From IMG/VR virus record IMGVR_UViG_3300040957_000063: a DNA stretch of 64,000 bases; one strand, 5' to 3'. The first letter of the stretch is position 1. Each line of letters starts with the position of its first letter. Below are positions 5,208 through 61,843 of the stretch, in pieces. The DNA comes from an uncultured virus (IMG/VR IMGVR_UViG_3300040957_000063). Taxonomy: Duplodnaviria > Heunggongvirae > Uroviricota > Caudoviricetes. A model generated the notes under the pieces. The model was not told where the DNA came from. It made no database searches and saw only the letters and a list, made by a program, of their open reading frames with translations. The position numbers were made by a program, and so were the translations under genes.

Positions 5208-5246
5208 GTAATATTTAAATACTTGAGGGTACTATTATAATAAATA

Positions 5247-37800: not shown

Positions 37801-38531
37801 CAATGTGGGGTCCAAAAAGCGGTAGCGGTGGTACTTGGGTAGAAGCTGAATATAATGGAACCACAGATTTAGCGGGCAAACAAATAGCTACAGAAACAGT
37901 AAACATTCAAATGAGTCAAGAACCAAAGTTTACTACTACATTCCAAGTTTATCAAGGAGCAGATTCATTAGGAACAACTGATACAATTTGGAACATAGGC
38001 GATTATGTTGATTTCGGATTGTTTACTCACAACTACCAATATCCAGAAGGAATTGACGGTGCTGGATTCATAATTAGAGTAAGATGTGAAGGTGTAGGAA
38101 TATTCAATGCTTACTCGATATTCTGCTCTAATTTTGGCGACTATGAACTACCATTTAATACATTGGTAGCTCAAGGAAAAGCAAAGTTCATTTGCGGAAT
38201 AATTTCAAATACAAAATACAAAGCTATAATAGAAGTAGAAGACAATAGTACCAATTACGGCAATGCATTACCAGAAGTAGTGATTAGCATATCAAACCAA
38301 GAAATAACTAACCCCCCGACATCCTACTCAGTTTGGACACAGTTTAATACTACAGCTATGTTACCTAACCCAACTTCATTCTTCAACACATTCTACGTTA
38401 GACCAATATACATCTTGATTAACGGTAACAAAGCAAGCAACACCGTAAGATGTGAAATGTTCTTCTATAACATAAAATGCCAAATTGACGTAATTCAAGA
38501 AACAGATAATCCATCATTAGGGAGTTCGTAA
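31899..38531 (+). CDS. giant tail tip/baseplate hub-like protein with inserted beta-sandwich domains
   Basis: 2210 aa; hub-like N-terminus and late segment (RRGVDRS..F..G.N..V.Y); NPSFESG CBM-like module. Confidence 0.7.
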   Translation: MPVWTIYVAHQNDVRISDNWGTARKWKKYEINEKVRQDSPPEFTATIEYDSGIQFNDLIRFDRDSVTQWVGFVEDLEIDWDQNSRYLLLGGRDLTYLLWRKYVENFNNAIKSTNGFFGNVNAVELTKFLLRTPRSDLPEVEDDSLGTYSIYPYNKEGWGIDISNFGPVTTGGHNTTISGETIGAGSTTEILEADNLVPSDSWNGYNLTFTSGPNSGQTRTILSSINSGFPAVMVLTVTSPFPHAYVTGDAYSVIPVNNTAIGYGDLGLTLLRKRDMVWGNSGSPNQASDPTGQGQVLTASLAYWTGYGTSPYIDVANQGSHPTNYIKSSINKNATAVFTQNGVSSSNPTGINSVYLTIIGASGSSWASWYASNCYVYIWVESYGGWSLLGNFGGKSSVFSSSLNWRTITFNCSSVIKTPSDLANARIQFIEYGNLSTFIQYAYLSVGYTGSGSISAGEWVNIQFNPVECMGFYMESRASIDQFPQNYHVTTQGAPETFNGYILDNPTYITEDDAEDTITFDSWQSDNSSKIAYFYRQGINADNTGPIGDFDETFAFAISSSESCTNYAGFGTPPAFVPFCLANQVADYSVIRNNGSDFTALEVLNINNVLSLQPVERSGGILQYNNNPSISTIAIGVPYYVHVTRVGSITTYSIYGSEAMTPTSAIYSYVFDSAPNYATYVYRYQAITFNQVSLYGTVYSNSMDVYSIDGERFQNPSFESGSSGGWSITDGSVILDPNAHSGNYDVSMLGLGGICKPVQVFNPSISFSKCTQFGFWWKCDIVGKSFVVSVQYDDLSYSAGITLNAANTTWNFENCLADGVWDNTSKNVINLIVNNSGYYTGNHLYLDDFTCQTSDNYQNWTRDGGTASVLTNTTKQIEGSACQQVHCTANGQGHYFEENLPSAVETVRVDAWVRCPPPATDSTNHDILANNWYNGSYSDHWGVYGQYPYIRNSSNEDDNHLFVNGTQIPSYDVNHLNDYATFDSIDTSLNVGFFAVSATTNCRLNVSSRIVQNIGGTGSIQNLHIRAYLWVQHMNNGAGGWVQIGDSGTYVFVPSLTNSNASAWANTFATIDPSSYLSSMNDWINAKVKLAFYGSIQSTGDPSKAQFQVGQIKLHWDGVGSSGYVNLLKVSNSSVGPDPQDPPVPPVYPPSPFVYIAEVVVAPSEWASDHQSYMRFMVRGFGGSPVAQNGELGTGWTELPIPYGNLDTPNPWVKIGLYVNVGNGTGYIKLFNITNWDGLTFDSNGFPADGAYLLCQLTGLTNNGTGLIDTVDYEAEYEHTYGNGSTYDTYLDSIYVYTFNVETHTVGSIFAGQGPEITLVTVTDNFYPDIIHSWEPRTMSNIKIYCDDNETAHGWEITQIYVYKTDIPKFRVTLDESITPFPTEMKMNFREVSTPIVSPYLSVDYNGTTITVSDQYGNVIISGTPSSAFYAGFFSIWATNTASFSAGTETISCDTPYIFNTQTYVELNNSSGGANEVVVYNYPIYAKQPFHYILDATHLTFNDDAYLYFAIDDAISDDYYGVQNELYGYIYYDDETYYLWVIGENNLNTSPHIFLNTNPYVNAQDTDVGLGVYVTAYDGQFGKNYVGTLLDYDNDSQEWRVDTHEGIAIPTAGQQILLYTNGGGEGIGQGILSTETQNVWAGGPYIYLSDANIDFSIFSTSELFWIGPANIPKNRLSDVLWDIATLVNDDYVPFEWWVSYPSTDPNHVCIGDFNMGPRRGVDRSNSVSFVTGTNMESVKYQRSSRDTYQRCQVIGSGEGKNQDDTSSFWQNDQDAMDEVNGFIEDIVTQKQVSGGRIANRYAKVQLKLDASPKEKNAITCDLGHDTYPSGTYGCGDDVALTDFLTGLGPSDPEGGVYRIWNLKVSGDENGEMTELTCQAPYLEIANIWKGVYKQLKSIGATGVMSQDWTGDGTATDKVSAEKLTDLFSVSAKNDVIDVGVGNTDPKWVENAFGSGSTSNWNSASGNLAMWGPKSGSGGTWVEAEYNGTTDLAGKQIATETVNIQMSQEPKFTTTFQVYQGADSLGTTDTIWNIGDYVDFGLFTHNYQYPEGIDGAGFIIRVRCEGVGIFNAYSIFCSNFGDYELPFNTLVAQGKAKFICGIISNTKYKAIIEVEDNSTNYGNALPEVVISISNQEITNPPTSYSVWTQFNTTAMLPNPTSFFNTFYVRPIYILINGNKASNTVRCEMFFYNIKCQIDVIQETDNPSLGSS

Positions 38532-38533
38532 AT

Positions 38534-38893
38534 ATGGGAATAAGTAGAATTCAAGGACCAGTACACGGTCATAGTGCTTCAAGTTCTGGTAGTGCAATCT
38601 TTAGCGGTACACCAGCAGTTGGCAATGTAATAATAGCGATTATAAGTTCAGGTGACTTCAGCAGTTACTACCACGTTTCTTCTATAACTCAAAGTGGAGT
38701 TAACTGGTCTGTTGCACCAGCGGGAAGAATAGCTGGTCCAGTAAACTTTAACGATGGTAGTTCAGACTTAGAGAATTCCGAAGTTTGGCTTGGCATAGTT
38801 ACGGGTTCTGGCGCAAGCAAAACCGTAAGATGTGAAATGTTCTTCTATAACATAAGATGCCAGATGAATGTATTAACGGAGATAACAACATAA
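38534..38893 (+). CDS. chimeric or truncated structural protein
   Basis: C-terminus TVRCEMFFYNIRCQ duplicates the end of the preceding gene. Confidence 0.5.
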   Translation: MGISRIQGPVHGHSASSSGSAIFSGTPAVGNVIIAIISSGDFSSYYHVSSITQSGVNWSVAPAGRIAGPVNFNDGSSDLENSEVWLGIVTGSGASKTVRCEMFFYNIRCQMNVLTEITT

Positions 38894-41800
38894 TGACACT
38901 AACTTGGGCAAGTGTTGGCGGCAATGCTCCACTTTTTTATATTCCTATAACTTTAACTAATAGCCAATCTCAAACTACAGCGGCAAATCTTCCAGTTAAA
39001 GTATCAATAAATTCGAATACAAATTCTGCCGATTATCAAGCCGCATTACTTAACGTGAATTGGCAAGATGGAGCGGGAAATATTCTTAAAAGTTGGCTTG
39101 AGAGTGGAGAAACTAACACTTCAACGGCAAGTGTTTATTGGGTTAATCTCGGAGCAAATACTATTACAGCAAGTGGTGGTACATTAATAATTTACCAAGT
39201 TATTTATGGTACAGTAGTTATAGCTATGGATGGAAGCAATACAGGGGCAGAACCTAACTATACAGGTACTTATGCCCAATATGACAACGGAACAAGCGTT
39301 TTTACTGAATACTGGAATTTCGCTGGTGCAAGTCTGCCCGCTGGATGGACAGATGCATATGGTGGTACAGCACCAGTAGTAAATAATGGTTTAACTATTA
39401 GTAATAATGAGGGTGGCTCAGTTTATAGAACCGCCGCAACTGCTTATAATTCTGCTGGCTATGTTTTTGAGACACAAATGAAAGATACTAATGCTGGTAA
39501 CCAAACTACAGGTGGATTTACAATTTGTAATGCACAAAATCCTCAAGGTGGAAATGGTGGTTCAAATGCATTAGTTCTATATTGTTGTAATGCCCCATCA
39601 TTCGTTTATGATGGTTGGGCGGCAGATGGTTCATCCTCATCATACAACATCTTTAGTGGTTCTACATTGTTTACTGCAACAATAAACGTATTTTGGATTG
39701 CAAGTATTGTTTGTGGAAACTCGACTACAAACAAAGTTAATTTGTACAAGGATTATGGTTCTGTAAAATCCTCATCAGGTTATATACATTCAACTATGTA
39801 TATTATTTTAGGATTAAAAGCTGGTTCTGGTGCAGACTCATACACTACACACCAATGGGTTTATCAATGGGTACGGTCAAGAATTGACCCACCGAATGAT
39901 ACAAATCCATCTGTAAGTGCTGGGTCAATTGTAAGTTTACCATCAGCTCATACAAATACTTATATTATTGATAGCAAACTAACAAAACGTTACACAAGCA
40001 CATATCTTATTGATAGCAAACTAACAAAACGTGTTCAAAATCCGTTTAACGTTGATGCTGACTTTAAAAAGTTCAAAGTGCAACTTCCTAATGTAATTGA
40101 TTCGAATTTCTATAATAAACCAACTATAGTAACTGGTGCCGAGTGGTTTGTTAACGGTAACTTTGAAACAGGAGACTTAACAGGATGGGGTTATGGCGGC
40201 GGTGAGGTTCAACCATCTGTCACAACTACAGACCCACATAGCGGAACTTATTGCTGTCAACTTTATGCATCTAATAATGACTCATTAAATCAAGGATTCT
40301 TCGACCCTAACGGAAACAACGTTATTGTAGTTTCAAATATAGAGTCATTTGGATTCTGGTATAGAAATCTGTCAACAGATGACGGCGTAAACGCACAGGT
40401 TCAATTAAATCTTACAGATGGAACCAATTCTTATTTCATAGCTGATAGCCTTAATGCTAATACTACATCGTGGGCATATTACGACATTCAAGCCCTTTTA
40501 GTTTTGAATGGTTACGCTTCAGGCACATATTGGGTTCAAAATATTAAAATTTCCAATAACACAGATGGAGATGTGTTTGTTGACGATTTCAGTTTACAAT
40601 ATCCGTTTGGAGATGCGGGAGTCGGTCTTGATGTTTGCCTTTGTAGCCCAATTGGTGGAGAAGAAGTAACAAACGGCGGCTTTGAGGATGGAAACTTTAC
40701 TGGATGGCAACCAAACGGCGGTGCAACAGTTGTAACTACAACCCCTCATTCTGGAACATATTGCTGTGACTTACTAAACGGTCAAAGCTATGGAGAAATC
40801 TATACCTCGATGAATGGTCAAGATAACTTATTCATACTTTGGAGTAGAGTACAAAGTTTTACTATGTGGTTTATGAATACTGACCCTCTAAGCGATGGGT
40901 TCCTTACTGTTTACACAAATTTGGGTGCATATAGCATAGAATTAGAAAATGCAACTTCATTATGGACAGAAATTGACATAATGGCACAAATGATTGCTCA
41001 AGGACCACCAGACCCGAATGAGGTAGTAACTTCTATTGAAGTATATATGAACGGAAGCGGAACAGGAACGCTTTTAGTTGACGACTTTAGTTTAATAGCA
41101 TCTCCTATCGGTCATTCTTTCTCACCTTACTCTATAGATACTACATTATTTAAATCTCCAAACTCACTATACCAAATTGATTCTGATTTTGGCAGAACTA
41201 TCTATCCATCTTACAATATGGATGTTATTCTTAGAAATCTTGTAACAACTGAAACAAGTACGAACCAAATCGATGTTCTGTTTAATCATCCTTATCGGTA
41301 TAGCATTGATTCTGACCTCAAAAAATTAAAAGTGGACGTAACTGACTTTATAGATGTTCTTTGCAAAAAACTTAAAATAACAAAAACAACGTTAGTAGAT
41401 ACTATATTTGCTCGTGCTAAACAATACTCTATAGATGCAAAATTACAAGCGGCTGTGCCAGTACAATATGCTATTGATACTGACTTCGAGGCACACGGAG
41501 TACAAGTACAATACATCATAGACACTCGATTTATTAAAACATACACATCTACATATTCAATTGATGCGGTAATATCTTTATCTAACTTCCCTGTAACTGA
41601 CTTAGTGGACTCATTATTTAAAGAGTTAAACATACAAGAGACAACAGGGGTGGATGTCATATTATTGAACAATACACCGCCTCTTCCCCCAATTTATGTA
41701 CAGCAAACTTTGAGATTTGTCAATCCAAACGGAGACTTATGGGTTTTCCCAACAGATTGGAAAGAAAACCAAGATTGCACCCCAGCTATAAGACAAGTTC

Positions 41801-44343
41801 CATTAGCAGAATCAGAATATCTCGATAAGGACACTTACGTTCTAAAGACAAGAGAAATAGATGTAACATTCAGACTTTCAGACAGCGAAAAAGAAATATT
41901 AGAAAATGTCTATAACTTTGCATCTACCGAAGGAGCAAATGATTTTACAGATATTTACCTCTACTTTAATAACCAAGATACAGACACAGGAGTTCATCCA
42001 AAGCCAGCACCGAGCGTACCAAAATACACATGGCACTATGTTGCTTGGCTCTCAAATAAAGATTACAAATATGAGTATGCATTCCAAGACGGACGATATG
42101 TTAGATGGTGGACTGTATCATTAACCATTAACGTTGAAAGTTTCTCAGGCTCTTCGGCTAATGAACCTGACTACTCGGAAACTCCATTCTCGATGGCTGT
42201 AGTGTTAGCTGGACACAAATTAATGCATATACTGGACTTCGAACGAAGCGACAAACATCCGCCTTTCCTTCCAGAGTGGGTTAACCAGCCAGCAGAGGTT
42301 GACAGTTACATTTGGAACGAATGCGTCTTAGATATGAGTTACACAGATAAAATGAGCAATGATGAAAAGTACCTAATGGATTTGGCTTTGTTAGGTCATC
42401 AAAAAGTAAACTTAGCAGATTATATCCATAATGTTCAAGGTTCCGTATGGATTTCTTCAATTAAAGCGACATTTGATGCTAAAAATTGGGCAAAACCGTG
42501 GAACGTAGAGATTGCTATTCAAGCAAACAACAACGAAGTTTCGTTTAATTCACAAGCGTCCGTAACACTTGATAGTGAAGGCATTGCAGACGGTGTTGAT
42601 ATAGGACCAGACCACGAAGGAACACTTTACATTGATGAAAATACATCTCCATTTACTCTTCCATCCAGCGGAAATACAATGCAATGCGGAGTACACGTAT
42701 TCTACTTCTTCCTTCCGAGCATAGCATCAGGATTTACAGCTTGGAGCGTAAGCGGAAATGCCGTAATAGTAGGCGAAGATACTTACGATGTTCAAACTTG
42801 GGATAGAGAAAGCAGAGTTTCCGTACTTATCTATGGAGCTTGCACAATCATCGCACAATACACAATGCCAGCTACAGAACAATGTGTAACTATCGCTTTA
42901 GACTCAGGGTTAAATGATTCAACAATAACAAACGTTGGATTGATAGCTATAGGCAATGTGTGGCAAGGAAGCGGAAGCAATTCGTTAACAAACGGTGGAT
43001 TTGAAACAGGCAGTATTAATCCGTGGGGACAAATCGGCGAAGCCCCAACAGAACAAGTGGTAAACGGCGGCTTTGAAGACGGTAACTTCACAGGATGGAC
43101 TAATACAGGCAACTTTATCTCAAGCAACCCAGCTACAGTACACTCAGGAAGCTATTCTCTTGGCATCTATGAACAACTTACTACACAAACATTCGGTGCT
43201 CCTATACCTGTTTCGTCTATAACTTCATTTAGCTTCTGGGCACAGGGCAATTCGTTCGTCAACGGCAGTTTTCTCGTTGTTACATATACAGATGCTACAT
43301 ATACTAATTTCCCAATCAACTTTACTAACGGCGGTGCGGTAACTTACTATCAATTCTTCCCGTTAAGCTCATTAACTGCTGGCAAATCAATCGCAAGCAT
43401 AGCATTCCGCGGCGGATTAGAAGGCGTAATTTATATTGATGATGTAGCATTAATCAGCACAGAAGGATGGGTACTTAACGGTCCACAAGCTCACAGCGGA
43501 AACTACTGCATAAAAAGAAGTAGCGTTGCCACAGCGGGAATCGAACAATCTTCACTTTCAATCAACGTAGATGACGTTATTGAGGCTTACTTCTGGGCTT
43601 GGACAGACCAAATAGCTTTAGGATTCGAACTAATAGTGAATATGGGTGGTGCTGGAACAATAGACTATACATTCTATGCTCCAAACCCTGAAACTTGGAC
43701 ACAATTTGATTTCCTACACTTGTTAGCACCTTATCTCGGAGAAGGAGCAGTTATCAACTCAGTTACAATCAATGCTCTCGGCTCTGGATGCATAATTGCA
43801 AACATCTATCTTGACGACATAGTTATCTCAATCGGCGGATTACCAGCCGACTTTAACGGCGAGCTATTCTTAGGACAACCATACAGTTTACAATGGATGA
43901 CAGACACATCTAACCCAACAGCAGTATTTGACCATTGGGAAGTAGTATGCGGAGACATCACAATAGCAAACCCAGCTTCAGTTTCTACAACATTCACAAT
44001 GAATAGCGGAACCTTAGCTTGGATACGGGCAATATATGTCGATACAGACCCAATACTTTACTTTACCTCACTCAACGAACAATACGGAACCTACAATAAC
44101 GGCGGAATCTACATTAACGAACAAATAACATCTTTGCCTCTTACTGCACACTATAGCGATGTACACGGCGTAAGTGGATTATTACAATTTGCGCCGCCGA
44201 ACGTTTGCCAAGACACTTTCGTTACATGGTGGACAGATAACCCATCGCAAATTACCTTTGGAAATCCAACTGACTACTTTACAACTTTCACAGCTACAGG
44301 AAGCGGAATAATAAGAGCAGTATTCAGAGGACCGAATTCATAA
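38893..44343 (+). CDS. giant tail/adhesin protein (DUF2341-like N-terminus, CBM-like NGxFExG repeats)
   Basis: YIPITLTNSQ..SWLES..VYWV; four NG(N/G)FE.G modules; Y.ID repeats; TAATG coupling suggests start at 38893. Confidence 0.75.
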   Translation: MTLTWASVGGNAPLFYIPITLTNSQSQTTAANLPVKVSINSNTNSADYQAALLNVNWQDGAGNILKSWLESGETNTSTASVYWVNLGANTITASGGTLIIYQVIYGTVVIAMDGSNTGAEPNYTGTYAQYDNGTSVFTEYWNFAGASLPAGWTDAYGGTAPVVNNGLTISNNEGGSVYRTAATAYNSAGYVFETQMKDTNAGNQTTGGFTICNAQNPQGGNGGSNALVLYCCNAPSFVYDGWAADGSSSSYNIFSGSTLFTATINVFWIASIVCGNSTTNKVNLYKDYGSVKSSSGYIHSTMYIILGLKAGSGADSYTTHQWVYQWVRSRIDPPNDTNPSVSAGSIVSLPSAHTNTYIIDSKLTKRYTSTYLIDSKLTKRVQNPFNVDADFKKFKVQLPNVIDSNFYNKPTIVTGAEWFVNGNFETGDLTGWGYGGGEVQPSVTTTDPHSGTYCCQLYASNNDSLNQGFFDPNGNNVIVVSNIESFGFWYRNLSTDDGVNAQVQLNLTDGTNSYFIADSLNANTTSWAYYDIQALLVLNGYASGTYWVQNIKISNNTDGDVFVDDFSLQYPFGDAGVGLDVCLCSPIGGEEVTNGGFEDGNFTGWQPNGGATVVTTTPHSGTYCCDLLNGQSYGEIYTSMNGQDNLFILWSRVQSFTMWFMNTDPLSDGFLTVYTNLGAYSIELENATSLWTEIDIMAQMIAQGPPDPNEVVTSIEVYMNGSGTGTLLVDDFSLIASPIGHSFSPYSIDTTLFKSPNSLYQIDSDFGRTIYPSYNMDVILRNLVTTETSTNQIDVLFNHPYRYSIDSDLKKLKVDVTDFIDVLCKKLKITKTTLVDTIFARAKQYSIDAKLQAAVPVQYAIDTDFEAHGVQVQYIIDTRFIKTYTSTYSIDAVISLSNFPVTDLVDSLFKELNIQETTGVDVILLNNTPPLPPIYVQQTLRFVNPNGDLWVFPTDWKENQDCTPAIRQVPLAESEYLDKDTYVLKTREIDVTFRLSDSEKEILENVYNFASTEGANDFTDIYLYFNNQDTDTGVHPKPAPSVPKYTWHYVAWLSNKDYKYEYAFQDGRYVRWWTVSLTINVESFSGSSANEPDYSETPFSMAVVLAGHKLMHILDFERSDKHPPFLPEWVNQPAEVDSYIWNECVLDMSYTDKMSNDEKYLMDLALLGHQKVNLADYIHNVQGSVWISSIKATFDAKNWAKPWNVEIAIQANNNEVSFNSQASVTLDSEGIADGVDIGPDHEGTLYIDENTSPFTLPSSGNTMQCGVHVFYFFLPSIASGFTAWSVSGNAVIVGEDTYDVQTWDRESRVSVLIYGACTIIAQYTMPATEQCVTIALDSGLNDSTITNVGLIAIGNVWQGSGSNSLTNGGFETGSINPWGQIGEAPTEQVVNGGFEDGNFTGWTNTGNFISSNPATVHSGSYSLGIYEQLTTQTFGAPIPVSSITSFSFWAQGNSFVNGSFLVVTYTDATYTNFPINFTNGGAVTYYQFFPLSSLTAGKSIASIAFRGGLEGVIYIDDVALISTEGWVLNGPQAHSGNYCIKRSSVATAGIEQSSLSINVDDVIEAYFWAWTDQIALGFELIVNMGGAGTIDYTFYAPNPETWTQFDFLHLLAPYLGEGAVINSVTINALGSGCIIANIYLDDIVISIGGLPADFNGELFLGQPYSLQWMTDTSNPTAVFDHWEVVCGDITIANPASVSTTFTMNSGTLAWIRAIYVDTDPILYFTSLNEQYGTYNNGGIYINEQITSLPLTAHYSDVHGVSGLLQFAPPNVCQDTFVTWWTDNPSQITFGNPTDYFTTFTATGSGIIRAVFRGPNS

Positions 44344-45872: not shown

Positions 45873-46175
45873 TTATTTCTTAGGGATTGGTTTAGGATTT
45901 TGATGTTGCGCTTGTGTTACTGCTGGTGTCGTTGGAGAAGGATTTACTGGTATTGGGGGAAAATCGTAGATGTTTCCGAATTTATCTATGAAAAATTGGT
46001 CGCCTTTCTTACTTGCGGGCATTGCTATTAGACCAACATTCTTTGTTAAAAATCCAATTAGGGCGGTTTGAGTAGCCATATCGCGGCACATCATAACTGA
46101 TACTGCCATCCCTCTAATTGCATAATCATATACAGGTTGAGCCATATTCTCACCATTACCTAATATAGTAGTCAA
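45873..46175 (-). CDS. hypothetical protein
   Basis: TATA and GGTGA before MAQPV. Confidence 0.55.
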   Translation of the reverse strand: MTTILGNGENMAQPVYDYAIRGMAVSVMMCRDMATQTALIGFLTKNVGLIAMPASKKGDQFFIDKFGNIYDFPPIPVNPSPTTPAVTQAQHQNPKPIPKK

Positions 46176-46196
46176 CCAGCTATTTAAATCTTATGG

Positions 46197-46616
46197 CTAA
46201 GTGAAAATAGTAGGAATTTTGGTGAGGCTTTTAGGCAAATAAACCAAATCATAATCGTTAATTCTTATCTTGATTTCCGATTTGGGAATGTTACCGAACT
46301 TCACTTTCTTCTGAACTTCTGGTTTGCTAAGATGAAGGAATCCTACTTTTTCATAGAATTCAACTGCTGTAGCTAAAGACCAGACGATAATCGGTAACTT
46401 ATATTGTTCTGAAATTAGCTTTAACCCGTCAAATGCAAGCCGTCCGTATCCGCTCTCTTGCCAAGATATTTCTGTGCCAACACTTGCAATCATAATTTGA
46501 GTCTTTTCAAGCGTGAATTCGATTGTGGTTATATCTTCTACTCCATTTACCATAACTTTCACGGTTTCTTTTACCATATCGATAGCGACTGTTACATTGC
46601 TTGTTACTTTCTTCAT
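46197..46616 (-). CDS. GNAT acetyltransferase
   Basis: WQESGYGR motif A; AVEFYEKVGF motif B. Confidence 0.75.
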   Translation of the reverse strand: MKKVTSNVTVAIDMVKETVKVMVNGVEDITTIEFTLEKTQIMIASVGTEISWQESGYGRLAFDGLKLISEQYKLPIIVWSLATAVEFYEKVGFLHLSKPEVQKKVKFGNIPKSEIKIRINDYDLVYLPKSLTKIPTIFT

Positions 46617-46753
46617 TTTACATCCAGAGCAATATCCACACAGGAGTATATAAGCCTTACGTTTTTTCTGGTAATTTAATCAGGTGATTAAGTGAAAACA
46701 GACCTCAAACGTAACGTTTATATAGGTCGGATGCTATGTTAGTGTAGATAAAA

Positions 46754-49700
46754 ATGCTATACACAGTCTCAGCAACTTATGATTATTCGTTAGAATGCAT
46801 AGTTTTGAAGTTGTACAATGACGAAGCTGGAATGCTTGAGTCTTATTATGACTACCAATTCAAGCCCTTCTTTTACTCTAAAGAGAAGCAAAAGTTTGAG
46901 GGAATAATCAAACAGGAAGAGGTAGAATTGTATGATGCACTCAACGACCAGAAAGTTACCGTATGGAAAATTACCTGTAAAAACCAAGAGGTAATTTCTA
47001 AATTCAATAATAAATCTCCTGAAGTTGTAGCTTGGGAGAATCATATTAAGCCTTATATGCGCTATATCTACGATACTAACACTAAAATGGGGATGCCTTA
47101 TGTTCGAGAAAGTGGGGCACTCGTTTTTAATGGTAGTGCAGAGGCAGAGAAACGAGTTGAAGAACTAACTGACCTTGTTAACCCAGAATCATTCAACAAA
47201 ATTATCTGTGAGCAAATGGCTCGGCTTCTTGAGTATCCAGCACCAATATTTAAGCGAGTTTCCTTAGACATTGAAGTGTGGAGTGAAGGACAGAAGATGC
47301 CAAGTCCAGCCGCCGCTAATTTACCAGTAATTTGTGTTGGAATGATGAGCAATACTGGCGAAAAATACCTTTATGTATTAGTACAAGAAGACAAGCCGTT
47401 TTCGTGTCCTAAAGATGCCAATATTTTCTGGTTTTCGGACGAAGCTGAACTTTTAAGGGCAGTTTTCGCTAAAGGCAATGAGTTTCCGTTTATAGTTACA
47501 TTCAACGGCGATGACTTTGACCTTCCATATCTAATGAATCGAGCACTTAGATTAGGGGTGCCGATGAGTGAAATCCCAATAACTTTCAAAGAGAAAGAGA
47601 AGATTTCCATCTGGAATAATGCGGTCCATATAGACCTATACAAGTTTTTCTCTATCAAATCAATGCAGAACTATGCTTTTCAGCAGAAATACAAGAACAT
47701 TTCTCTTGATGAAATCTCATTGGCGTTAATAAAGAAGGGTAAACTCAAGGGCGACCACGAATGGGTTAATGATATGACCTATGAAGAGCTTCTAACTTAC
47801 TGTTTAAACGATGCTTTACTCACAATGGAACTAACAACTTACAGCGATAACGTAGTAATAAACTTGATTCTTGTCTTAGCCAGACTAAGCTATATGCCTA
47901 TGGAACAAGTCAGCCGAAAGCCTATTTCCCAATGGATTAGGAGCTTCATTTATTACGAGCACGTTAAAAAAAGTATGCTTATTCCGCGCTCTGAAGACAT
48001 TATAGCTATGAAGGGAACAACAACAACTACTGCACTAATCAAGGGTAAAAAGTATAAAGGCGCAATAGTAGTTAATCCTGTAGCTGGATTCCATTTCAAT
48101 GTTAAAGTTGGAGACTTTGCTTCTCTTTATCCATCAATTATTAAAAACTGGAATCTTGGGTATGCAACTGTAAATTGTAAATGTGGAGCTTTATGGAAAC
48201 AAATAATGTTATATACAACCGAAAGAGTTATATACCGTGAATTACATAAATGTTTACGGTGTAATAACCAATGCCAAGTAGAAGAAAAAATGAAACAAAT
48301 GTTGAATATAAACAAAGATGTAAAAAATATTCAGCAAAATGGAGATTTGAACACCCAGAAAAAGCCAAGTCTATTCAACGAGATTCCTATAAAAAGTCAA
48401 TGCTTGACCCAAAAAAACGAAAACGAAAACAACAAAGGGATAAAAAATTTCGTGATGCCAATCCAGAATATGGGAGAAAACGAGCAAGAGAATATGCCAG
48501 AAGAAATAGGGGAAAAATGCGAGATAGATATGAAAGATGGTCAAAATCTAAACGAATTACCTTCTTTAACGCCAGAGGAAACAAATGCGAGAGATGCGGC
48601 TTTAATGACGAACGAGCCTTTGAAATACATCATATCAATGGAAACAAAATACCAAGAGAGGAAAGAAATAATATTACAACACTTGTTACGGAAAATTGGG
48701 ACGAACTGCAATTGTTGTGTGCAAATTGTCACAGAATTGTTCACCGCTTATGAGTGTTATTCTCATAAAGTTGCCAATATGCAACATTGGATTTGCACAA
48801 AAAACAGGGCTGTAGAATCTCAATTGATTGGTGTCCTGAAGGATTTACGTGTCAAGAGCTACAAGAAGAAGGCAAAGGACAAGACTAATCCTCATAAAGC
48901 GTGGTACTCGGTATCAGAACAAGCCATTAAAGTCATTTGCAATGCTTCTTACGGAGTATTCGGAGATGACACATTTGTTCTATATTGTCCACCTATGCCT
49001 GAGTACGTTACAGGAATCGGACGATGGATTATTACTCAGACAATCAAACACGGTCAAGAATTAGGCTTAAACATTATCTACGGCGATACTGATTCTATCT
49101 TCATTAAGAATCCGCCCCAAGAAGTATTAGACGAGCTATTGGCTTGGGCAAAGAAGAATTTTGACATTGACTTCGAACTTGATAAAGAATATCGTTATGC
49201 ATGTCTCAGCGCACGAAAGAAGAATTACTTTGGTGTTCTTAAAGACGGCACAGTTGATGTGAAGGGCTTAACTGGAAAGAAAAAACACACACCAAAAATA
49301 ATTAAATATCCATTTGAAGAGACAAAGAAGTTGCTGGCTCAGGTTAATACCGAAGCTGATATTCTGGTTGCTAAGAAGGCTATATTGAAGCTGGTCAAAA
49401 GCACCTACCTAAAGATTAAGACACGAAACTTCGGGGATATGGAAAACTTAGCGTTCCACGTAACCGCTTCCAAAGATGTCGAGGATTATGACGGCGACCC
49501 ACAACACATTAAAGCGGCAAAGCTACTGAAGGCGGCTGGTCAAGACATCGGCGAGGGGTCAGACATTTCATTTGTTAAAACCAAAGATAAACTGAAGGTT
49601 AAACCAACTAAGTTGGCAAAACCAGACGATATTGACATCACGAAATACAACGAATTCTTAAAAAGCACATTCATACAGATTCTTGAGCCATTAGGTCTTG

Positions 49701-49759
49701 ATTGGGACCACGATATTCTCGGAATCTGTGTGATGGATAGATTCCTTACTTCTGAATAA
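46754..49759 (+). CDS. polB: family B DNA polymerase (crenarchaeal/thaumarchaeal type) with in-frame insert of about 190 aa
   Basis: DIE; FNGDDFD; DFASLYPSII; K...NASYG; YGDTDS; KKNY. Confidence 0.95.
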   Translation: MLYTVSATYDYSLECIVLKLYNDEAGMLESYYDYQFKPFFYSKEKQKFEGIIKQEEVELYDALNDQKVTVWKITCKNQEVISKFNNKSPEVVAWENHIKPYMRYIYDTNTKMGMPYVRESGALVFNGSAEAEKRVEELTDLVNPESFNKIICEQMARLLEYPAPIFKRVSLDIEVWSEGQKMPSPAAANLPVICVGMMSNTGEKYLYVLVQEDKPFSCPKDANIFWFSDEAELLRAVFAKGNEFPFIVTFNGDDFDLPYLMNRALRLGVPMSEIPITFKEKEKISIWNNAVHIDLYKFFSIKSMQNYAFQQKYKNISLDEISLALIKKGKLKGDHEWVNDMTYEELLTYCLNDALLTMELTTYSDNVVINLILVLARLSYMPMEQVSRKPISQWIRSFIYYEHVKKSMLIPRSEDIIAMKGTTTTTALIKGKKYKGAIVVNPVAGFHFNVKVGDFASLYPSIIKNWNLGYATVNCKCGALWKQIMLYTTERVIYRELHKCLRCNNQCQVEEKMKQMLNINKDVKNIQQNGDLNTQKKPSLFNEIPIKSQCLTQKNENENNKGIKNFVMPIQNMGENEQENMPEEIGEKCEIDMKDGQNLNELPSLTPEETNARDAALMTNEPLKYIISMETKYQERKEIILQHLLRKIGTNCNCCVQIVTELFTAYECYSHKVANMQHWICTKNRAVESQLIGVLKDLRVKSYKKKAKDKTNPHKAWYSVSEQAIKVICNASYGVFGDDTFVLYCPPMPEYVTGIGRWIITQTIKHGQELGLNIIYGDTDSIFIKNPPQEVLDELLAWAKKNFDIDFELDKEYRYACLSARKKNYFGVLKDGTVDVKGLTGKKKHTPKIIKYPFEETKKLLAQVNTEADILVAKKAILKLVKSTYLKIKTRNFGDMENLAFHVTASKDVEDYDGDPQHIKAAKLLKAAGQDIGEGSDISFVKTKDKLKVKPTKLAKPDDIDITKYNEFLKSTFIQILEPLGLDWDHDILGICVMDRFLTSE
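48271..48753 (+). CDS. HNH endonuclease nested out of frame inside polB
   Basis: GNKCERCG..FEIHHING..LQLLCANCH; own promoter at 48218-48235. Confidence 0.85.
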   Translation: MPSRRKNETNVEYKQRCKKYSAKWRFEHPEKAKSIQRDSYKKSMLDPKKRKRKQQRDKKFRDANPEYGRKRAREYARRNRGKMRDRYERWSKSKRITFFNARGNKCERCGFNDERAFEIHHINGNKIPREERNNITTLVTENWDELQLLCANCHRIVHRL

Positions 49760-50081
49760 CAAAGATGTGAAGGCAAACAGGGTTATTACATTTCCATACT
49801 GTATAATTATACACATCTTTTTTAAAAATTAGTTTTATATCATCGCTTCCACAATATTTGCACTTTGGTCTCACTTCTGCCATATTGGGTCACTCTTTTA
49901 ATCAGATGATTAATTAGGACCCAGAGTAAAAACTACTATTTAAAACTATCTATAGAAATTAACAAAAAAAAGTTGGGATTAGGATGGACAGGTCGGACAA
50001 ACCGTAACATTTATATATTAGATTATCTATATTTTTCTTTGTGCTTAGGCACATTGGATTGGAATGGATTGAAAAAGGTAG

Positions 50082-50441
50082 GTGATTGGATTGATAAAAG
50101 AAGTATTAGAACGAGTAAATGCCAAAATTATCAGAATTGTTTCATTAGAAGACGATGTTATTATAGATTATATAGACAATAGCGAACACCAACATCCTTT
50201 AAATAAATATAGATATGCTCATATTTTAAAAAGTGATTGGACATCTTCTAAAGAAAAAGTACCATTTTTTGCTTTGGAATTGCTTAAAAAGTCTCTTGTA
50301 AATGATACGCCAATAGATTTAGTTTTGGAACGAAGAAAAAATCCTAAAGTAACACCACCAGAATGGGATTATATCATTAAAGTTGGCGACTTAAAGGCAG
50401 TAAAAGAATTTAACTTTACACTAAAGACTGAAAAAAGTTAA
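50082..50441 (+). CDS. hypothetical protein
   Basis: 119 aa; segment similar to C-terminus of the 45367 ORF. Confidence 0.5.
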   Translation: MIGLIKEVLERVNAKIIRIVSLEDDVIIDYIDNSEHQHPLNKYRYAHILKSDWTSSKEKVPFFALELLKKSLVNDTPIDLVLERRKNPKVTPPEWDYIIKVGDLKAVKEFNFTLKTEKS

Positions 50442-50548
50442 CATAAAATAAATAACAGCCACATTTTCCTTATTTTTTGTTAAACGTAACCAAAAAATGT
50501 ATAAGGACAGCAAAACATTTAAATATTAGTGTCTGTCCTTAGTACATA

Positions 50549-50920
50549 GTGATTAAAATGCCATATAAAAGTAGCGATAAAAAACGTCAACATCAAAGAG
50601 ATTATGACCGAACACATAGAACCGAAAGGAAGGTATATCTTAAAAATTTAAGATTACGCGCTGTAGCAAAACTTGGTGGTAAATGTGTTAACTGTGGTTG
50701 TGATGATATTAATGCTTTAGAATTTAACCACATTAACGGCGGCGGAAATCAAGAGGGAAAAAAACATAAAGGTAATGGTTGGCGGTCAGCAACATTGTTT
50801 TATGAAATAATATCAGATAAAAGAACTGATATAGACCTTAGATGTAGAGTTTGTAATTCAGTTCATTACTTAGTAAAACTAAAGGGATTAAAAAATAGGT
50901 GGAAAATTATTTACACCTAA
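50549..50920 (+). CDS. HNH endonuclease (NHINGGG subfamily)
   Basis: Shares LGGKCVNCGCDDINALEFNHINGGG with the 17190 ORF. Confidence 0.85.
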   Translation: MIKMPYKSSDKKRQHQRDYDRTHRTERKVYLKNLRLRAVAKLGGKCVNCGCDDINALEFNHINGGGNQEGKKHKGNGWRSATLFYEIISDKRTDIDLRCRVCNSVHYLVKLKGLKNRWKIIYT

Positions 50921-52689
50921 CTTGGGCAAGTGGGACACGTACCATCTTCTTTTACAAGAAGCTGATATTGACGACTGTTATCTCGATAAACTGTTGTGCC
51001 TTTTATTTCAAGTTTCCACGCTTGCATATAGATTGATTCGATGTCGTGAATTGATGCGCCATTGGGTAGGTTTATTGTCTTAGAAACTGCATTGTTAGTG
51101 TACTTTTGGAATGCCGCTTGCATTTTCAAATGCCATTCTGGTGAAATCTCTGCTGATGTCCTTAGAACTTCTTTCATTTCTTTTGGCAGAACCACACAGT
51201 TTTTGCATTGGGTGTCAACAAGAGCTTTTTCAATATCTGGGGTCCAGAGACCTTTAAGCTCAAGCGAACGTTTAACTGAAGGATTAATTTCGACAAGATT
51301 CTTGCCTAAAGTTTCCTCGACATTTCGCCGTTGAACTACAGCAAAAATTGGCTCTATACCTGATGATGCATTAGCAATCAAGCTGATTGTTCCAGTTGGG
51401 GCGATTGTTGTAAGTGTTGCATTACGCATATATGGTTCTTTCTTGAATATGCTTTTGTCTTTGTTAGGGAAGTTTCCTTTCTCTTTGCCTAACGCGATTG
51501 AAACTCGCATAGCGGTTGAGAGCATGGACGACATTATTTTCTGGGAAAGTTCGATTGCCTCATCGCTATCATACTTGATTCCCATAAACATTAAGAGGTC
51601 AGCCCACCCCATTACGCCGAGACCTATTTTACGGTTAGCTATTGTTGCTTCTCGAATTTGTGGAAGAGGGTATTTATTGGCATCTACAACGTCATCTAAG
51701 AATCTAACAGCTATTGCGACTGACTTTTCGAACTTCTCGAAGTCAAAACTAACGTGCCCGTTTTTGTGGATGAATTTGCTAAGGTTCATTGAACCGAGAT
51801 TGCAAGATTCATATGGTAGAAGTGGAGTTTCGCCGCACGGATTAGTAGCTTCTATTTCACCTATCTCTGGTGTTGGATTAGCCTTGTTGATTGTGTCTAA
51901 AAATACAACTGCTGGTTCGCCGTTTTTCCAACTCATCAAGCAGAGAAGATTCCATATAGCTCGTGCTTTTATTGACTTTATTGGTTTGTCGGTTCTGGGG
52001 TTTATAAATTCGAAATCGCCGTCTTTTTCTACTGCCCGCATAAATTGGTCGGTTATTCCAACTGACAAATTAAAGTTGTGCAAAACACCTTCTGTTTCTT
52101 TCGCCATAATGAAGTCCATTATGTCTGGATGGTCCACACGCATAATTCCCATGTTTGCGCCACGCCGTTTGCCACCTTGCTTGATGACTTCGGTTGCGGC
52201 ATCGAACACAGTCATAAATGAGATAGGTCCAGATGCTACGCCGCCAGTTGATTTAACAACATCGGATTTTGGTCGTAGTCTTGAGAAAGAAAAGCCTGTT
52301 CCGCCACCAGATTTGTGTATCCGTGCGGTATAAGCTATAGCCTGAAAGATTTGGTCAATATCGTCTTCAACTGGAAGAACAAAACACGCTGATAGTTGAC
52401 CTAAATTCGTTCCAGCGTTCATTAACGTTGGGGAATTAGGCAAAAACTCAAGTCGAGTCATAATATTGAAGAATTCCTTTTCGGTTTGTTTTACAAATGC
52501 TTTATCTTTGCCATAGTTGTATTCTATTTCGGCAATTGCTTTAGCAACTCGCTTAAACATCTGAGTCGGGGTTTCAATGATTTCCCTGTTCTCGTCACGT
52601 TGTAAGTATCGTTGTTTTAGGATGAACCTCGCGTTTTCAGAGAGATTTAGAGCCTTGTCACTTTGTTTTTGTGGTTTCAAATTAATCAC
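50917..52689 (-). CDS. nrdJ: class II (B12-dependent) ribonucleotide reductase
   Basis: PNSPTLMNAG; LSACF; RRGANMG; TNPCGE; IAPTG; C-terminal CPTC. Confidence 0.92.
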   Translation of the reverse strand: MINLKPQKQSDKALNLSENARFILKQRYLQRDENREIIETPTQMFKRVAKAIAEIEYNYGKDKAFVKQTEKEFFNIMTRLEFLPNSPTLMNAGTNLGQLSACFVLPVEDDIDQIFQAIAYTARIHKSGGGTGFSFSRLRPKSDVVKSTGGVASGPISFMTVFDAATEVIKQGGKRRGANMGIMRVDHPDIMDFIMAKETEGVLHNFNLSVGITDQFMRAVEKDGDFEFINPRTDKPIKSIKARAIWNLLCLMSWKNGEPAVVFLDTINKANPTPEIGEIEATNPCGETPLLPYESCNLGSMNLSKFIHKNGHVSFDFEKFEKSVAIAVRFLDDVVDANKYPLPQIREATIANRKIGLGVMGWADLLMFMGIKYDSDEAIELSQKIMSSMLSTAMRVSIALGKEKGNFPNKDKSIFKKEPYMRNATLTTIAPTGTISLIANASSGIEPIFAVVQRRNVEETLGKNLVEINPSVKRSLELKGLWTPDIEKALVDTQCKNCVVLPKEMKEVLRTSAEISPEWHLKMQAAFQKYTNNAVSKTINLPNGASIHDIESIYMQAWKLEIKGTTVYRDNSRQYQLLVKEDGTCPTCPS

Positions 52690-54045: not shown

Positions 54046-54474
54046 TTAAGCCTTATGGATATTATATAGTTCGGGATGATGAATAGGACAGAATTGAACT
54101 TTAGTTTGTCCTTTAGCCATATTACAATTATAACACAAAACTTGAAATCCATTTGGGTAATTATTTCTTTTAAGCCAATAATATAGGTGAGAACCATTCC
54201 CACCAATTTTTCTACGATGTTCATGTCCATCGCCGTTAATATGGTCAATACTAAGAAATCTAACTTCAAGTTCACCACAACAGGCACAAATAGGCGGATT
54301 GTTACTATAATGAATAAGCACTTCTAATTTGAGTTTTTGTTGATACCGTTTTATGATTTCTGGGTTATTTTTTTGATAATCCTTTATTCGTTGTATTACT
54401 TCTGGTCGCTGATAATATTCTTTTCTATATTTTTTCCTTTTTATTGGGTCTTTCCACGGCATATATATCATCAT
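54046..54474 (-). CDS. HNH endonuclease
   Basis: PPICACCGE..FLSIDHINGDG..FQVLCYNCN. Confidence 0.85.
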   Translation of the reverse strand: MMIYMPWKDPIKRKKYRKEYYQRPEVIQRIKDYQKNNPEIIKRYQQKLKLEVLIHYSNNPPICACCGELEVRFLSIDHINGDGHEHRRKIGGNGSHLYYWLKRNNYPNGFQVLCYNCNMAKGQTKVQFCPIHHPELYNIHKA

Positions 54475-54970: not shown

Positions 54971-55708
54971 ATGATATATATGAGTTTGAAAAAAGGCGAT
55001 TTCGTAACCTTCGATTATACAGCGAAGATTAAAGAATCAGACGAAGTTTTCGATACTACCATTGAGGAAGTTGCAAAAACAGCAAAATTGAAGAATCAAG
55101 GAGATAAATATGAATCTCGTCTTGTCGTTTTAGGCGAAGGATGGGTTCTAAAGTCTATTGATGACGCACTTTTGAAGTTGAAAGTTGGAGAAACTTCACT
55201 TATTGAGATAGCCCCTGAGAATGCATTCGGAAAAAGAAACAATGAATTGGTCAAAACTGTTTCATTGACAAGTTTGACCGAGAAAGGCATAAGACCTGTA
55301 GCTGGTATGCGTCTGCAAAGCGGTGGAAAAACTGTTATGGTGCGGTCTGTAGGTGCTGGTAGAGTTGTTTTAGACTACAATCATAGTCTTGCTGGTCGAA
55401 CTTTGATTTACGAAGTAACTTTGAAATCTGTTTTGACTGAGATAAAAGAAAGAATCTTAGGGTTAATTCATAGAAGAATACCCACAGTTGAAGCAAGCAA
55501 GTTCTTAGTTCACGTTACGGCAAAAGCTATTAACGTTCATATGCCCCCAGAAACTTTGAACACCGAAGGAATTCAACAGATAAAACGCGGTATTTCACAG
55601 GAGATTTTCAAATTCTTCCCAGAAATCCAATCTGTAAACTATCTCGAAGCGTTCGAAGCCCCTACTAAAATAACAAAACCGACAGTTCCCGACACAAAAA
55701 CAGTATAG
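54971..55708 (+). CDS. archaeal long-type FKBP peptidyl-prolyl isomerase (SlyD-like)
   Basis: GDFV.FDYT..FDTT..G.GWV..PENAFG.R..DYNH.LAGRTL.YEV. Confidence 0.9.
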   Translation: MIYMSLKKGDFVTFDYTAKIKESDEVFDTTIEEVAKTAKLKNQGDKYESRLVVLGEGWVLKSIDDALLKLKVGETSLIEIAPENAFGKRNNELVKTVSLTSLTEKGIRPVAGMRLQSGGKTVMVRSVGAGRVVLDYNHSLAGRTLIYEVTLKSVLTEIKERILGLIHRRIPTVEASKFLVHVTAKAINVHMPPETLNTEGIQQIKRGISQEIFKFFPEIQSVNYLEAFEAPTKITKPTVPDTKTV

Positions 55709-55762: not shown

Positions 55763-56698
55763 ATGGCAAAAGAACCTAAAGCGTCCAAAGTTTGGAAGCC
55801 AAAGATGAAATTGTGGGACGGAACATCCGTTCACGCTTCTCTTGATACCCTTATGATGCAAGACATTATGCTTAAACTCTGCAAATTAGGATTTGATGCA
55901 GAACACAAAGCGTGGTGGAGTTTTGAAGACTTACACAATGGCAAAGTAGCCTTTGTTACTCACACAAGACGGTTAGGAGCTATTAATCCATATTCAATCA
56001 GCCAAAGAGATGCCGAGAAATGGCAACTCGATATGTATTCAGGGAAACTACCTCGAAACGTTGCTATGCAAGTCGCGGCTCACGGGCACTCTACTCGTGG
56101 TTCGATAGACGATGACCCATTTTTAATTTTAAATGCCCCCTGTTGGTGTACTTTTCTTGAGTACCCTAAAGCAAACGCAAACTTCGCTCATTACCAGACA
56201 GATATAGGCGCAACATTCATCATTGTAACTAAAGAAGGCAGAATCAGGACCCAGAAATGGCTATATAAGCCTTTTGTCTATGACCACAATGAGAAAAAGA
56301 TTTATGATGCTATAGAAGTTGACCCTAAGAAATACATTGACGGTTGCAATGGTAAAATTGACATTGAAAACTACTTTAAAGTGATGTGCGCTGACGCTAA
56401 GTTCATTGTAGCTGTAGTGGCAGACTTTCACGTAGGAGAAGTTGCCGCAATTGCGCCACCGCAATACACATACAATGGACAGACATTCCAAGTTCCATAC
56501 ACAGCCGCAAATGAAAGATTATTCAATTATTGGAAGAATTTTGTTGCAGTTTGCAAGATGATAAAGCCAAATGAAATCTGGGTAGTCGGAGATGCCTGTT
56601 GTGGAACACAAATATTCGAGAAAACAAGACGAAGCAACACACAGAACCTTGAAGAACAGAAGGCGCAATTTGTTGAGTTATTTAAAGAGTTTCTTTAA
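55763..56698 (+). CDS. calcineurin-like metallophosphoesterase, circularly permuted
   Basis: Motifs in order GTSVH, TH, AHGH, DFHVG, GDACCG. Confidence 0.7.
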   Translation: MAKEPKASKVWKPKMKLWDGTSVHASLDTLMMQDIMLKLCKLGFDAEHKAWWSFEDLHNGKVAFVTHTRRLGAINPYSISQRDAEKWQLDMYSGKLPRNVAMQVAAHGHSTRGSIDDDPFLILNAPCWCTFLEYPKANANFAHYQTDIGATFIIVTKEGRIRTQKWLYKPFVYDHNEKKIYDAIEVDPKKYIDGCNGKIDIENYFKVMCADAKFIVAVVADFHVGEVAAIAPPQYTYNGQTFQVPYTAANERLFNYWKNFVAVCKMIKPNEIWVVGDACCGTQIFEKTRRSNTQNLEEQKAQFVELFKEFL

Positions 56699-57194
56699 AT
56701 AATATCTTTCTGTTAGTTTCTTTTTTTTCTACTCTTTTTATCCAATTACAGTTAGCACAAAGCAATTGATAGTCTGTTGAGCCGTTTTTGACTTTCTCAA
56801 GAATTACTTTAAGAGTTTTATATGGATATTTATTTTCTTTTCTTTCTATATATCCATTACCATGAACGTGGTCTATCTGTAAACACGCATAATTATTACA
56901 CCAATCAGGATGGGGTAATAAATTAAATGGATTAACACATTTACCACCAAGTAGTTTAATTATTTCTTCTCTTAATGAACGAAATTTCTCATATGATTTT
57001 TTTGATTCTTCTTCTCGTTGTCGTAAATATCTTTCATGTCTTAGTTTAAGAAGATGTTCTTTATTTTCTGAATATCGGTCTGCTGAATCTTGGAGTTTTC
57101 CAGTTTTATTCTCAAGATACCAAATATGTTGATATTCTTTCATATATTCTTTTTTGTTGGTTGCTTTGATATTTCGTTTCATATTTATCATCAT
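56682..57194 (-). CDS. HNH endonuclease
   Basis: LGGKCVNP..CLQIDHVHGNG..YQLLCANCN. Confidence 0.85.
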   Translation of the reverse strand: MMINMKRNIKATNKKEYMKEYQHIWYLENKTGKLQDSADRYSENKEHLLKLRHERYLRQREEESKKSYEKFRSLREEIIKLLGGKCVNPFNLLPHPDWCNNYACLQIDHVHGNGYIERKENKYPYKTLKVILEKVKNGSTDYQLLCANCNWIKRVEKKETNRKILFKETL

Positions 57195-61429: not shown

Positions 61430-61843
61430 ATGAGCTATGGTGTAGATGAAGAAGTTAACCAATCCGTGAAGGGTGGAAAGAAAGTTGACGTAATGGCTAT
61501 CGATGCGGCTGAAAAAGCTAAAATCGGTATGGGCAAATTCATTGACAACCCAGAAAACGCAAGACGTTTAGCTGGTACTGCAAGCAAAGACGAAATGATT
61601 AGTTCAGAAAGCATCGCGGGTCCTCAAGACAAAGAAGTTCCGCCAATGGGTTCGCAAGTAGTTAGCGGTCCATTAGATGGAATGTCCAAAGCGGTTCCTC
61701 AGCAATGGGACCAAGTTGGAAAATCAGAAAGCATAGAGAACCAAGCTATAGTTGCAAAGTTCGATGGTACAATGAAAGCTAAAGGCATTCCAAGCGCAAC
61801 AGGCGTTCCTCAACAGACTGACGAAGGCAAAGACGGCGTTTAA
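61430..61843 (+). CDS. low-complexity head-module protein
   Basis: GGTGA RBS; SESI and VPQQ each repeated. Confidence 0.55.
   Translation: MSYGVDEEVNQSVKGGKKVDVMAIDAAEKAKIGMGKFIDNPENARRLAGTASKDEMISSESIAGPQDKEVPPMGSQVVSGPLDGMSKAVPQQWDQVGKSESIENQAIVAKFDGTMKAKGIPSATGVPQQTDEGKDGV

Follow-up and report, generated by a model that had tools for sequence, protein, structure and literature searches.

A putative homing element with a hidden HNH endonuclease gene in the open polB reading frame of an uncultured, apparently archaeal-type virus

The polB locus, its insert and the hidden HNH gene

The stretch of DNA analysed here (64,000 nucleotides of an uncultured virus, IMG/VR record IMGVR_UViG_3300040957_000063; hereafter the window) encodes a family B DNA polymerase, PolB, whose gene is interrupted by a 576 nt insert that keeps the polymerase frame open and holds a complete HNH endonuclease gene in a shifted frame. 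The polB open reading frame (ORF) runs from 46754 to 49759 on the + strand as a single open frame of 1001 aa. Its product is recognised by Pfam as a family B polymerase (PF00136, E=7e-37; PF03104, E=6e-18) with motifs A, B and C present, and an insert-free polB allele matches S. solfataricus PolB1 (1s5j) at E=2.1e-170, i.e. the archaeal PolB1 type. The nearest relatives are Bathyarchaeia/Thermoproteota PolBs at ~45% identity. PolB relatives also occur on IMG/VR viral contigs, e.g. L018 (112 kb), and among isolated viruses in the phage collection no PolB is nearer than 27%. The upstream part of the gene (46754..48178, +) comprises the exonuclease domain and motif A (DFASLYPSII) and ends in ...ATVNC. 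The downstream part (48755..49759, +) opens with CYSHKVANMQHWIC and comprises motif B, the YGDTDS motif C and the thumb. These limits are those of alignment A1 and of the Pfam domains (DNA_pol_B_exo1 and DNA_pol_B upstream; DNA_pol_B, residues 687-956, downstream). A polB promoter motif, AAACGTAACGTTTATATAGGTC, is found at 46707..46728 (+), ~37-47 nt 5' of the polB ATG (46754), with a score of 23.0 in a position weight matrix scan.

The insert occupies 48179..48754 (+), with boundaries accurate to ~+/-6 nt, and comprises 192 polB-frame codons with 0 stops. It is positioned between two invariant Cys, in a predicted loop just 3' of motif A, and is absent from close polB alleles. In an alignment of 15 sequences, insert-free homologs among them, the two Cys are separated by 4 residues (PHEE, PHDG etc.) in 8 sequences and by 185-206 residues in 7 (192 in the window); a first-pass annotation of this DNA had described both the open frame and the spacing of about 4 residues in PolBs lacking the insert, and both descriptions stand. 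No notable terminal repeats are present at the insert ends, and the polB-frame peptide of the insert matches no Pfam family at E<=0.01.

Within the insert, a 160 aa HNH endonuclease gene is encoded at 48271..48753 (+), open from its ATG, as that annotation had also proposed. Its product passes PF01844 (E=4.5e-7; 30.4 bits against a cut-off of 21.4), matches PHROG HNH families (best E=8.9e-13) and carries the beta-beta-alpha-metal motif CxxC...HH...N...CxxCH. Its nearest relative of solved structure is the LtrA HNH domain (E=3e-4). HNH relatives number 2515 at E<=0.001, the best representative being 48% identical; the window's own HNH is not among the representatives returned. The HNH stop, TGA, is at 48751-48753 and leaves 1 nt of insert 3' of it, so that outside the HNH ORF the insert has just 92 nt before and 1 nt after. 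Each polB codon consists of positions 2 and 3 of an HNH codon plus position 1 of the next; that is, the polB frame is the +1 frame of the HNH gene.

Contigs assembled from independent sequencing runs span both junctions of the insert: those of X11 cover 48157-48433 and 48638-48962, those of X12 cover 47722-48206 and 48410-48900, and that of X7 covers 47700-48211. Misassembly, which the first-pass annotation had named as a way in which its reading could fail, is therefore excluded.

A promoter motif within the host reading frame

A promoter motif resembling a B recognition element and TATA box (BRE/TATA), CCGAAAGAGTTATATA, lies inside the insert at 48219..48234 (+), where the polB frame reads it as the residues TERVIY. 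It is one of 26 matches in the window to the 16-nt degenerate pattern CCRWAASRNTTAWATA, for which 0.02 matches are expected; the annotated promoter is thus recovered by a count over the whole window. From the start of the motif to the HNH ATG there are 52 nt, within the range of 32-80 nt at other genes, and the gap from motif end to ATG is 37 nt. A TATA-like nonamer, GTTATATAC, is present in two copies 19 nt apart (direct repeat D9; 48208..48216 and 48227-48235, +), the upstream copy forming a second TATA-like box, and the two may be alternative TATA boxes. GGTG at 48258..48261 (+), 10-13 nt 5' of the HNH ATG, is a possible Shine-Dalgarno-like element as judged from its sequence.

All 8 polB inserts considered below open with the block T-(K/E)-(R/K)-(F/L/V)-I-(Y/W), which is the promoter motif in its polB-frame reading. 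The element appears to bring its own transcription signal, one that also codes in the host frame, because the block recurs in every insert and the motif core is also found inside a related element in a methyltransferase gene (L177, below).

Presence, absence and turnover of the insert among polB alleles

Of the 120 polB relatives listed, 7 are at least 955 aa long, and each of these 7 has an insert with an open frame, located at the window site in 6 of them and elsewhere in P0057. P0057 (1033 aa, JGI protein) has an element of the same family after ...ICAHRK, ~75 residues upstream of the window site, again with the polB frame open. Identity inside the inserts is not coupled to identity outside them. 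Between the window and P0001, identity is 94% outside the insert and 33% inside it; the corresponding values are 89% and 31% for P0008 and P0020, and 48% and 54% for P0001 and P0065. Outside the insert, the insert-bearing P0001 shares 99% identity with P0002, which has no insert. The polB inserts appear to form about five lineages, which are incongruent with the polB tree. The lineages are ~30% identical in the polB frame, each keeping ~190 stop-free codons.

Consistent with this, a diverged polB allele in run X13 has 24 listed differences from the window at 48031-48178 and none listed at 48179-48255. The listed differences end at 48178, and therefore the same element is present in a different polB background, with a break in similarity at its left boundary. 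Allele patterns of this kind would be those expected for homing together with repeated replacement of one element lineage by another.

A metagenome scan with insert alignment A2 returned the window's own contig as the sole match, alignment A3 had no match in the genome or viral contig collections, and the HNH alone gave only motif-level matches (36% identity) against viral contigs. None of the 79 loci with PolB relatives in IMG/VR has a window-type insert.

The open polB frame and chance

Stops in the +1 frame of an HNH gene arise solely where an NTA codon is followed by a purine or an NTG codon by A. The +2 frame of a protein rich in Lys, Arg and Glu is full of T|AA, T|AG and T|GA, and the +1 frame is usable because its stops are limited to those two contexts. 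The third frame within the HNH ORF has 19 stops. In the window HNH the bases after the 3 NTA codons are C, C and T, and those after the 6 NTG codons are C, C, C, C, T and T, exactly as first annotated: a pyrimidine always follows NTA, and A never follows NTG.

Several null models were applied to this absence of stops. Synonymous shuffling inside the HNH gene gives P(0 stops)=0.032 (3232/100000). Redrawing HNH codons from the window usage gives 3.6-4.1 stops expected and P(0)=0.011 and 0.0024, and the same procedure for the HNH of L177 gives P(0 stops)=0.008 and 0.004. For the 92 nt of insert upstream of the HNH gene, P=0.05 for 0 stops. The departure is far stronger against real genes. The +1 frame of the window HNH has 0 stops in 161 codons, whereas each of the window's 10 free-standing HNH paralogs has 7-16, and the paralog rate of 0.069 stops per codon corresponds to a Poisson P(0 in 161 codons)=1.6e-5. 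At the loci of 109 HNH relatives from viral and genome collections (110 surveyed; L137 was dropped when the ORF finder returned a 3-codon stretch) the median is 4.6 +1-frame stops per 100 codons, and zero is found in 2 of the 109. One of the two, L177, is the closest HNH relative with DNA available and is itself embedded in a host gene. The second, L206, was discounted as it lies in GC-rich DNA with ORFs in every frame.

These numbers bear on an explanation in which polB is not needed whole, another polymerase or split enzyme halves serving instead, and the open frame merely reflects the composition of a purine-rich, T-poor HNH gene. The insert is indeed T-poor (T 0.22, and 0.20 in the HNH ORF alone, against 0.30 in the window) and A-rich, which lowers the number of stops; the P of the within-gene shuffle is 0.032; the relative P0273, discussed below, may be a broken copy; and the window covers just part of the genome (the contig is 92.7 kb). 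The other shifted frame, however, has the same composition and contains those 19 stops, and all 10 paralogs and 107 of the 109 relatives have +1-frame stops. The open state also persists across lineages only ~30% identical in the polB frame, and polB outside the insert is 94-99% identical between insert-bearing and insert-free alleles. Nor is a conserved restart codon, as a split gene might use, found downstream of the insert: P0065 and P0057 have L in place of the Met of ANMQHW. A dispensable polB with a frame left open by composition is accordingly the least probable of the alternatives considered here, and very improbable in itself. The open polB frame is, as far as these comparisons go, not a product of chance, and selection appears to keep the host frame free of stops.

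The stop avoidance seen by the first-pass annotation thus holds, modestly within the gene and strongly against the paralogs. Support is only partial for its further proposal, that usual Leu positions are replaced so as to avoid stops (ITFFNARGNKC): F is likewise present at this place in P0121-P0123, the closest relatives called, and the replacement may be a lineage trait.

Which of the two frames is conserved

The HNH residues C106, C109, H120, H121, C150, C153, H154 and H158 are codon-compatible in 8/8 inserts when the polB-frame peptides are mapped to the HNH frame, and the invariant polB-frame residues V181 and V184 are HNH zinc-binding cysteines shifted by one base. One-base replacements at polB position 2 (HNH position 3) and at position 1 number 80:38 in the inserts, as against 217:265 outside (Fisher odds ratio 2.57, p=9e-6). 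The polB-frame insert peptides are hydrophilic, with grand averages of hydropathy of -0.44 to -1.01 compared with -0.34 for PolB. Because replacements favour HNH third positions and the metal-binding and catalytic residues of HNH are kept, the HNH protein looks like the conserved product, and the polB-frame peptide looks like an unselected by-product that drifts and is constrained just to be stop-free. The term 'overprinted', used for the HNH gene in the first-pass annotation, therefore has the direction wrong: the HNH frame is the one under selection and the polB-frame peptide follows from it.

Splicing of the mRNA or of the protein

No signature of an intein, a group I intron or a bulge-helix-bulge (BHB) intron had been noticed at first annotation, and searches with Pfam and Rfam, a BHB scan and a folding analysis concur. 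Some archaeal mRNAs undergo BHB intron splicing, and removal of the insert from the polB mRNA by an unrecognised intron, either an atypical group I-like ribozyme or a BHB intron processed by the splicing endonuclease of the host, would make the open frame incidental or leave it to some other use. HNH genes are frequent passengers of group I introns according to a recent report (PMC11855218). No Rfam group I or group II intron family matches at E<=10 across 46000-51000, and no more than the 92+1 nt outside the HNH ORF would be free for a ribozyme core. The insert has no excess of RNA structure (fold z-score 0.18). In our own loose BHB scan, which was home-made and not exhaustive, 6 BHB-like matches were found against 3.9 expected by shuffling (maximum 13 in shuffles), i.e. 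at chance level. One of these loose pairings does fall at the junctions (48177/48750, 573 nt), which speaks for an intron; it is weak, with 3 G-U among its 4 central pairs, and has no counterpart in L177. Splicing of an intron would moreover place no demand on the frame, which nevertheless stays open in L177 and in all 8 polB inserts. An unrecognised intron is thus improbable, if the least improbable of the alternatives.

Removal could also take place in the protein. The insert would then be translated and afterwards excised or cut, either through an intein-like reaction of a non-canonical type or through proteolytic cleavage of the loop, to give a ligated or a two-piece PolB. The residue after the insert is the invariant Cys C668, of the nucleophile type that inteins require; some inserts end in N (P0008 ...AYN, P0065 ...LSN); and a related viral PolB, L024, bears a canonical intein at another place. 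The position of C668 is equally invariant in insert-free PolBs, however, and the C-terminal ends of the inserts are not conserved (YE, YN, QS, SS, SN). The polB-frame peptide matches neither a Hint nor an intein family in Pfam, the C-terminal His-Asn is missing and the HNH is out of the host frame. A catalytic domain in the polB frame is also hard to reconcile with a peptide that evolves as a by-product of HNH (80:38 vs 217:265, p=9e-6). Protein-level removal therefore seems slightly less probable again than an intron, and more probable than a dispensable polB.

The same design in a methyltransferase gene

A second host gene is found at L177:481-1863, on a contig binned in a Candidatus Bathyarchaeota metagenome-assembled genome. 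This ORF encodes a class I S-adenosylmethionine-dependent methyltransferase and holds a hidden HNH gene at 963-1553, whose product is 37% identical to the window HNH. The host frame is again HNH+1, with 0 stops. By alignment, the insertion is a clean 222 aa relative to insert-free 239-aa homologs of 83% identity. The HNH stop, TGA at 1551-1553, lies at the insert end, and a promoter core at 912-923, the sole core match in 5 kb, lies inside the element, 40 nt 5' of the GTG. The C-terminal 102 aa of the methyltransferase alone have no Pfam match.

A probable homing element and its proposed tolerance by read-through

The comparisons together document, at the level of sequence, a mobile HNH cassette bearing a promoter motif, its presence and absence among alleles, turnover of its lineages, a fixed pass-through phase and selection against host-frame stops. 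The insert is best read as a homing-type mobile element that is tolerated by read-through translation, with no splicing, and we assign this reading a probability of about 0.65. PolB is probably made whole, with an extra loop. In the element of ~570 nt, a BRE/TATA promoter of archaeal style would be followed by a short leader and then by an HNH gene, the stop codon of which closes the element. The HNH protein would be made from its own transcript and would cut insert-free alleles in co-infecting relatives, and repair after the cut would copy the element into the empty allele. The polymerase mRNA would remain unspliced, ribosomes reading through to yield a PolB with a hydrophilic loop of ~190 residues, the sequence of which is a by-product of the HNH frame. 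Copies that gain a polB-frame stop would be purged by selection. The proposal of the first-pass annotation, a homing element that spares polB by dual coding, is supported in this form by allele presence and absence, by the open frame in about five lineages, and by its occurrence both at two sites in polB and within a methyltransferase gene.

Several points weigh against the read-through interpretation or narrow its basis. The within-gene shuffle gives just P=0.032, and because of this much of the stop avoidance is to be placed in amino-acid composition (LIVMF 0.16), itself perhaps in part a lineage trait. Read-through itself we infer solely from conservation of the open frame, and the placement in a surface loop is drawn from alignment indels against 1s5j and from PolB structure. 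DNA of the element was available from the window and from L177; in the case of the seven remaining inserts, HNH frame and promoter were deduced from the codon compatibility of polB-frame peptides. The protein search was limited by length and so reveals long open ORFs alone. A search of shorter proteins returned P0273 (539 aa, on a 54.6-kb contig), which terminates after 64 residues of a P0001-type insert (...EIKKQIHS) and could be a copy broken or frameshifted at an A-run, an assembly or frameshift error, or the result of a contig end. The insert-free joint was not seen in the 4 runs examined, in some of which parts of the stretch are uncovered. For the X13 allele, 2 of the 26 contig differences are unlisted and may lie near the contig ends.

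The reading can be widened. Archaeal-type viruses would host portable translatable cassettes, each a BRE/TATA promoter followed by an HNH gene with a stop-free HNH+1 frame. Any protein-coding gene could take up such a cassette in phase within a surface loop, the examples here being two sites of an apparently essential replicative polymerase and a methyltransferase, and the cassettes would have opened a third, splice-free route into essential genes independently of ShiLan, a mycobacteriophage element described below. We put the odds for this broader proposal slightly above even.

The virus and its other HNH genes

With 37.6% G+C the window is AT-rich, and it seems to be a piece of an uncultured tailed virus using archaeal-type gene expression. 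The stretch is present in 24 DNA runs of peat or wetland origin, which belong to 23 studies; no RNA run is among them. The gene content includes a weak terminase match, a ribonucleotide reductase, a dCMP deaminase, an FKBP26-type isomerase and giant proteins bearing carbohydrate-binding modules (CBM). The isomerase, encoded at 54971-55708, is a viral FKBP26-type peptidyl-prolyl isomerase with FKBP_C, IF and C-terminal domains. Two giant ORFs at 31899-38531 (2210 aa) and 38857-44343 (1828 aa), the second with CBM_4_9 domains and short repeated peptide motifs, probably encode tail-fibre or adhesin proteins.

The motif AACC(G/A)(T/A)AA(G/C)(A/G)TTTA(A/T)ATAG occurs in ~100 copies per 64 kb, mostly 35-50 nt 5' of ORF starts. 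Examples of this BRE/TATA-like motif are at 57570, 24177, 25526 and 46707 on the + strand and at 23261, 6079 and 46198 on the - strand. There is about one such promoter per small gene, and the consensus is unusually uniform.

The virus genome is heavily colonised by HNH genes. At least 10 free-standing HNH paralogs are present in the 64-kb window, at 1178-1600 (-), 17190-17585, 20887-21258 (-), 22098-22517 (-), 24231-24692, 25573-26004, 50549-50920, 54046-54474 (-), 56682-57194 (-) and 61840-62214 (-); those at 50549, 22098 and 17190 are ~50% mutually identical.

In the IMG/VR relative L024 the polB gene (1501-4980; PolB 38% identity) has a canonical LAGLIDADG-type intein between YCPPVSE and VTAIGR, which accounts for its extra 330 residues. 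A free-standing HNH-like gene (4987-5733) adjoins this polB on the opposite strand.

Comparison with known systems

T4 mobE is reportedly a free-standing phage HNH homing endonuclease near nucleotide-metabolism or replication genes, and I-HmuI is the HNH endonuclease of the SPO1 DNA-polymerase intron. Endonucleases of this kind sit between genes or in self-splicing introns, whereas the window HNH lies inside an open host frame. Free-standing HNH genes, moreover, have shifted frames full of stops (7-16 in the window paralogs), unlike the hidden HNH. Canonical archaeal and viral PolB inteins, e.g. that of L024, are likewise in-frame translated mobile insertions in polB with a homing endonuclease. 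In these inteins, splicing blocks (CYSDDTEIL...GN|S in L024) border an endonuclease that shares the host frame, and the window insert has neither feature. Neighbouring cases are the out-of-frame endonucleases inside true inteins, in which a replication gene likewise carries a translated insertion and the endonuclease is encoded in a different frame of it; those insertions self-splice from the protein, whereas that of the window is without an intein domain. To our knowledge, selfish endonuclease genes have been thought to persist in essential genes only by splicing, as introns in RNA or as inteins in protein. If the reading given here is true, the polB element represents a splice-free third way, beside introns and inteins, for selfish DNA inside essential genes.

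The closest known counterparts are the ShiLan domain and the Pacc40 gp60 insertion, hidden out-of-frame HNH elements in the DNA methylase genes of mycobacteriophages (Arsenault, Gosselin & Gogarten 2025, PMC11855218). These elements and that of the window are alike in being patchy among close alleles, in a stop-free host frame whose peptide has no matches, in an HNH gene that is out of frame with the host and whose stop falls in the final bases of the insert, and in lacking an intein or intron signature; by the description given for ShiLan, the phase is also the same. The report already proposed a third way, a selfish gene read through as a harmless loop, on the basis of a dispensable methylase in one bacterial phage group; its authors found no ribosome-binding site and proposed leaderless initiation. 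Going by that account, the design was published in 2025 and so is not new as a kind. A tblastn search with the window HNH against 50,697 phage records gave 20 matches at E<=0.001, none of them from a mycobacteriophage, and the likeness to ShiLan/Pacc40 appears to be one of design, common descent not being supported by the HNH sequence.

The differences from ShiLan concern host, promoter and spread. The host gene here encodes a replicative family B polymerase of an archaeal-type virus and not a dispensable methylase of a bacterial phage; the element has a recognisable promoter matching the virus's own consensus; and several element lineages occur at one site, with further sites and genes in the window family. 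In the literature searched, no comparable element was found described for an archaeal virus or for any family B polymerase, and what is new here is the family B polymerase host, the archaeal-type virus and the recognisable internal promoter. The promoter, encoded within the host reading frame, offers a possible route for expression of the hidden gene. Gene callers overlook such HNH genes and report over-long host proteins, and the pass-through phase rule (host = HNH+1) provides a simple screen for further cases. The locus thus extends the ShiLan design to a replicative polymerase, to archaeal-type promoters and to several lineages and host genes, with controls from paralogs, 109 relatives and the phase of substitutions.

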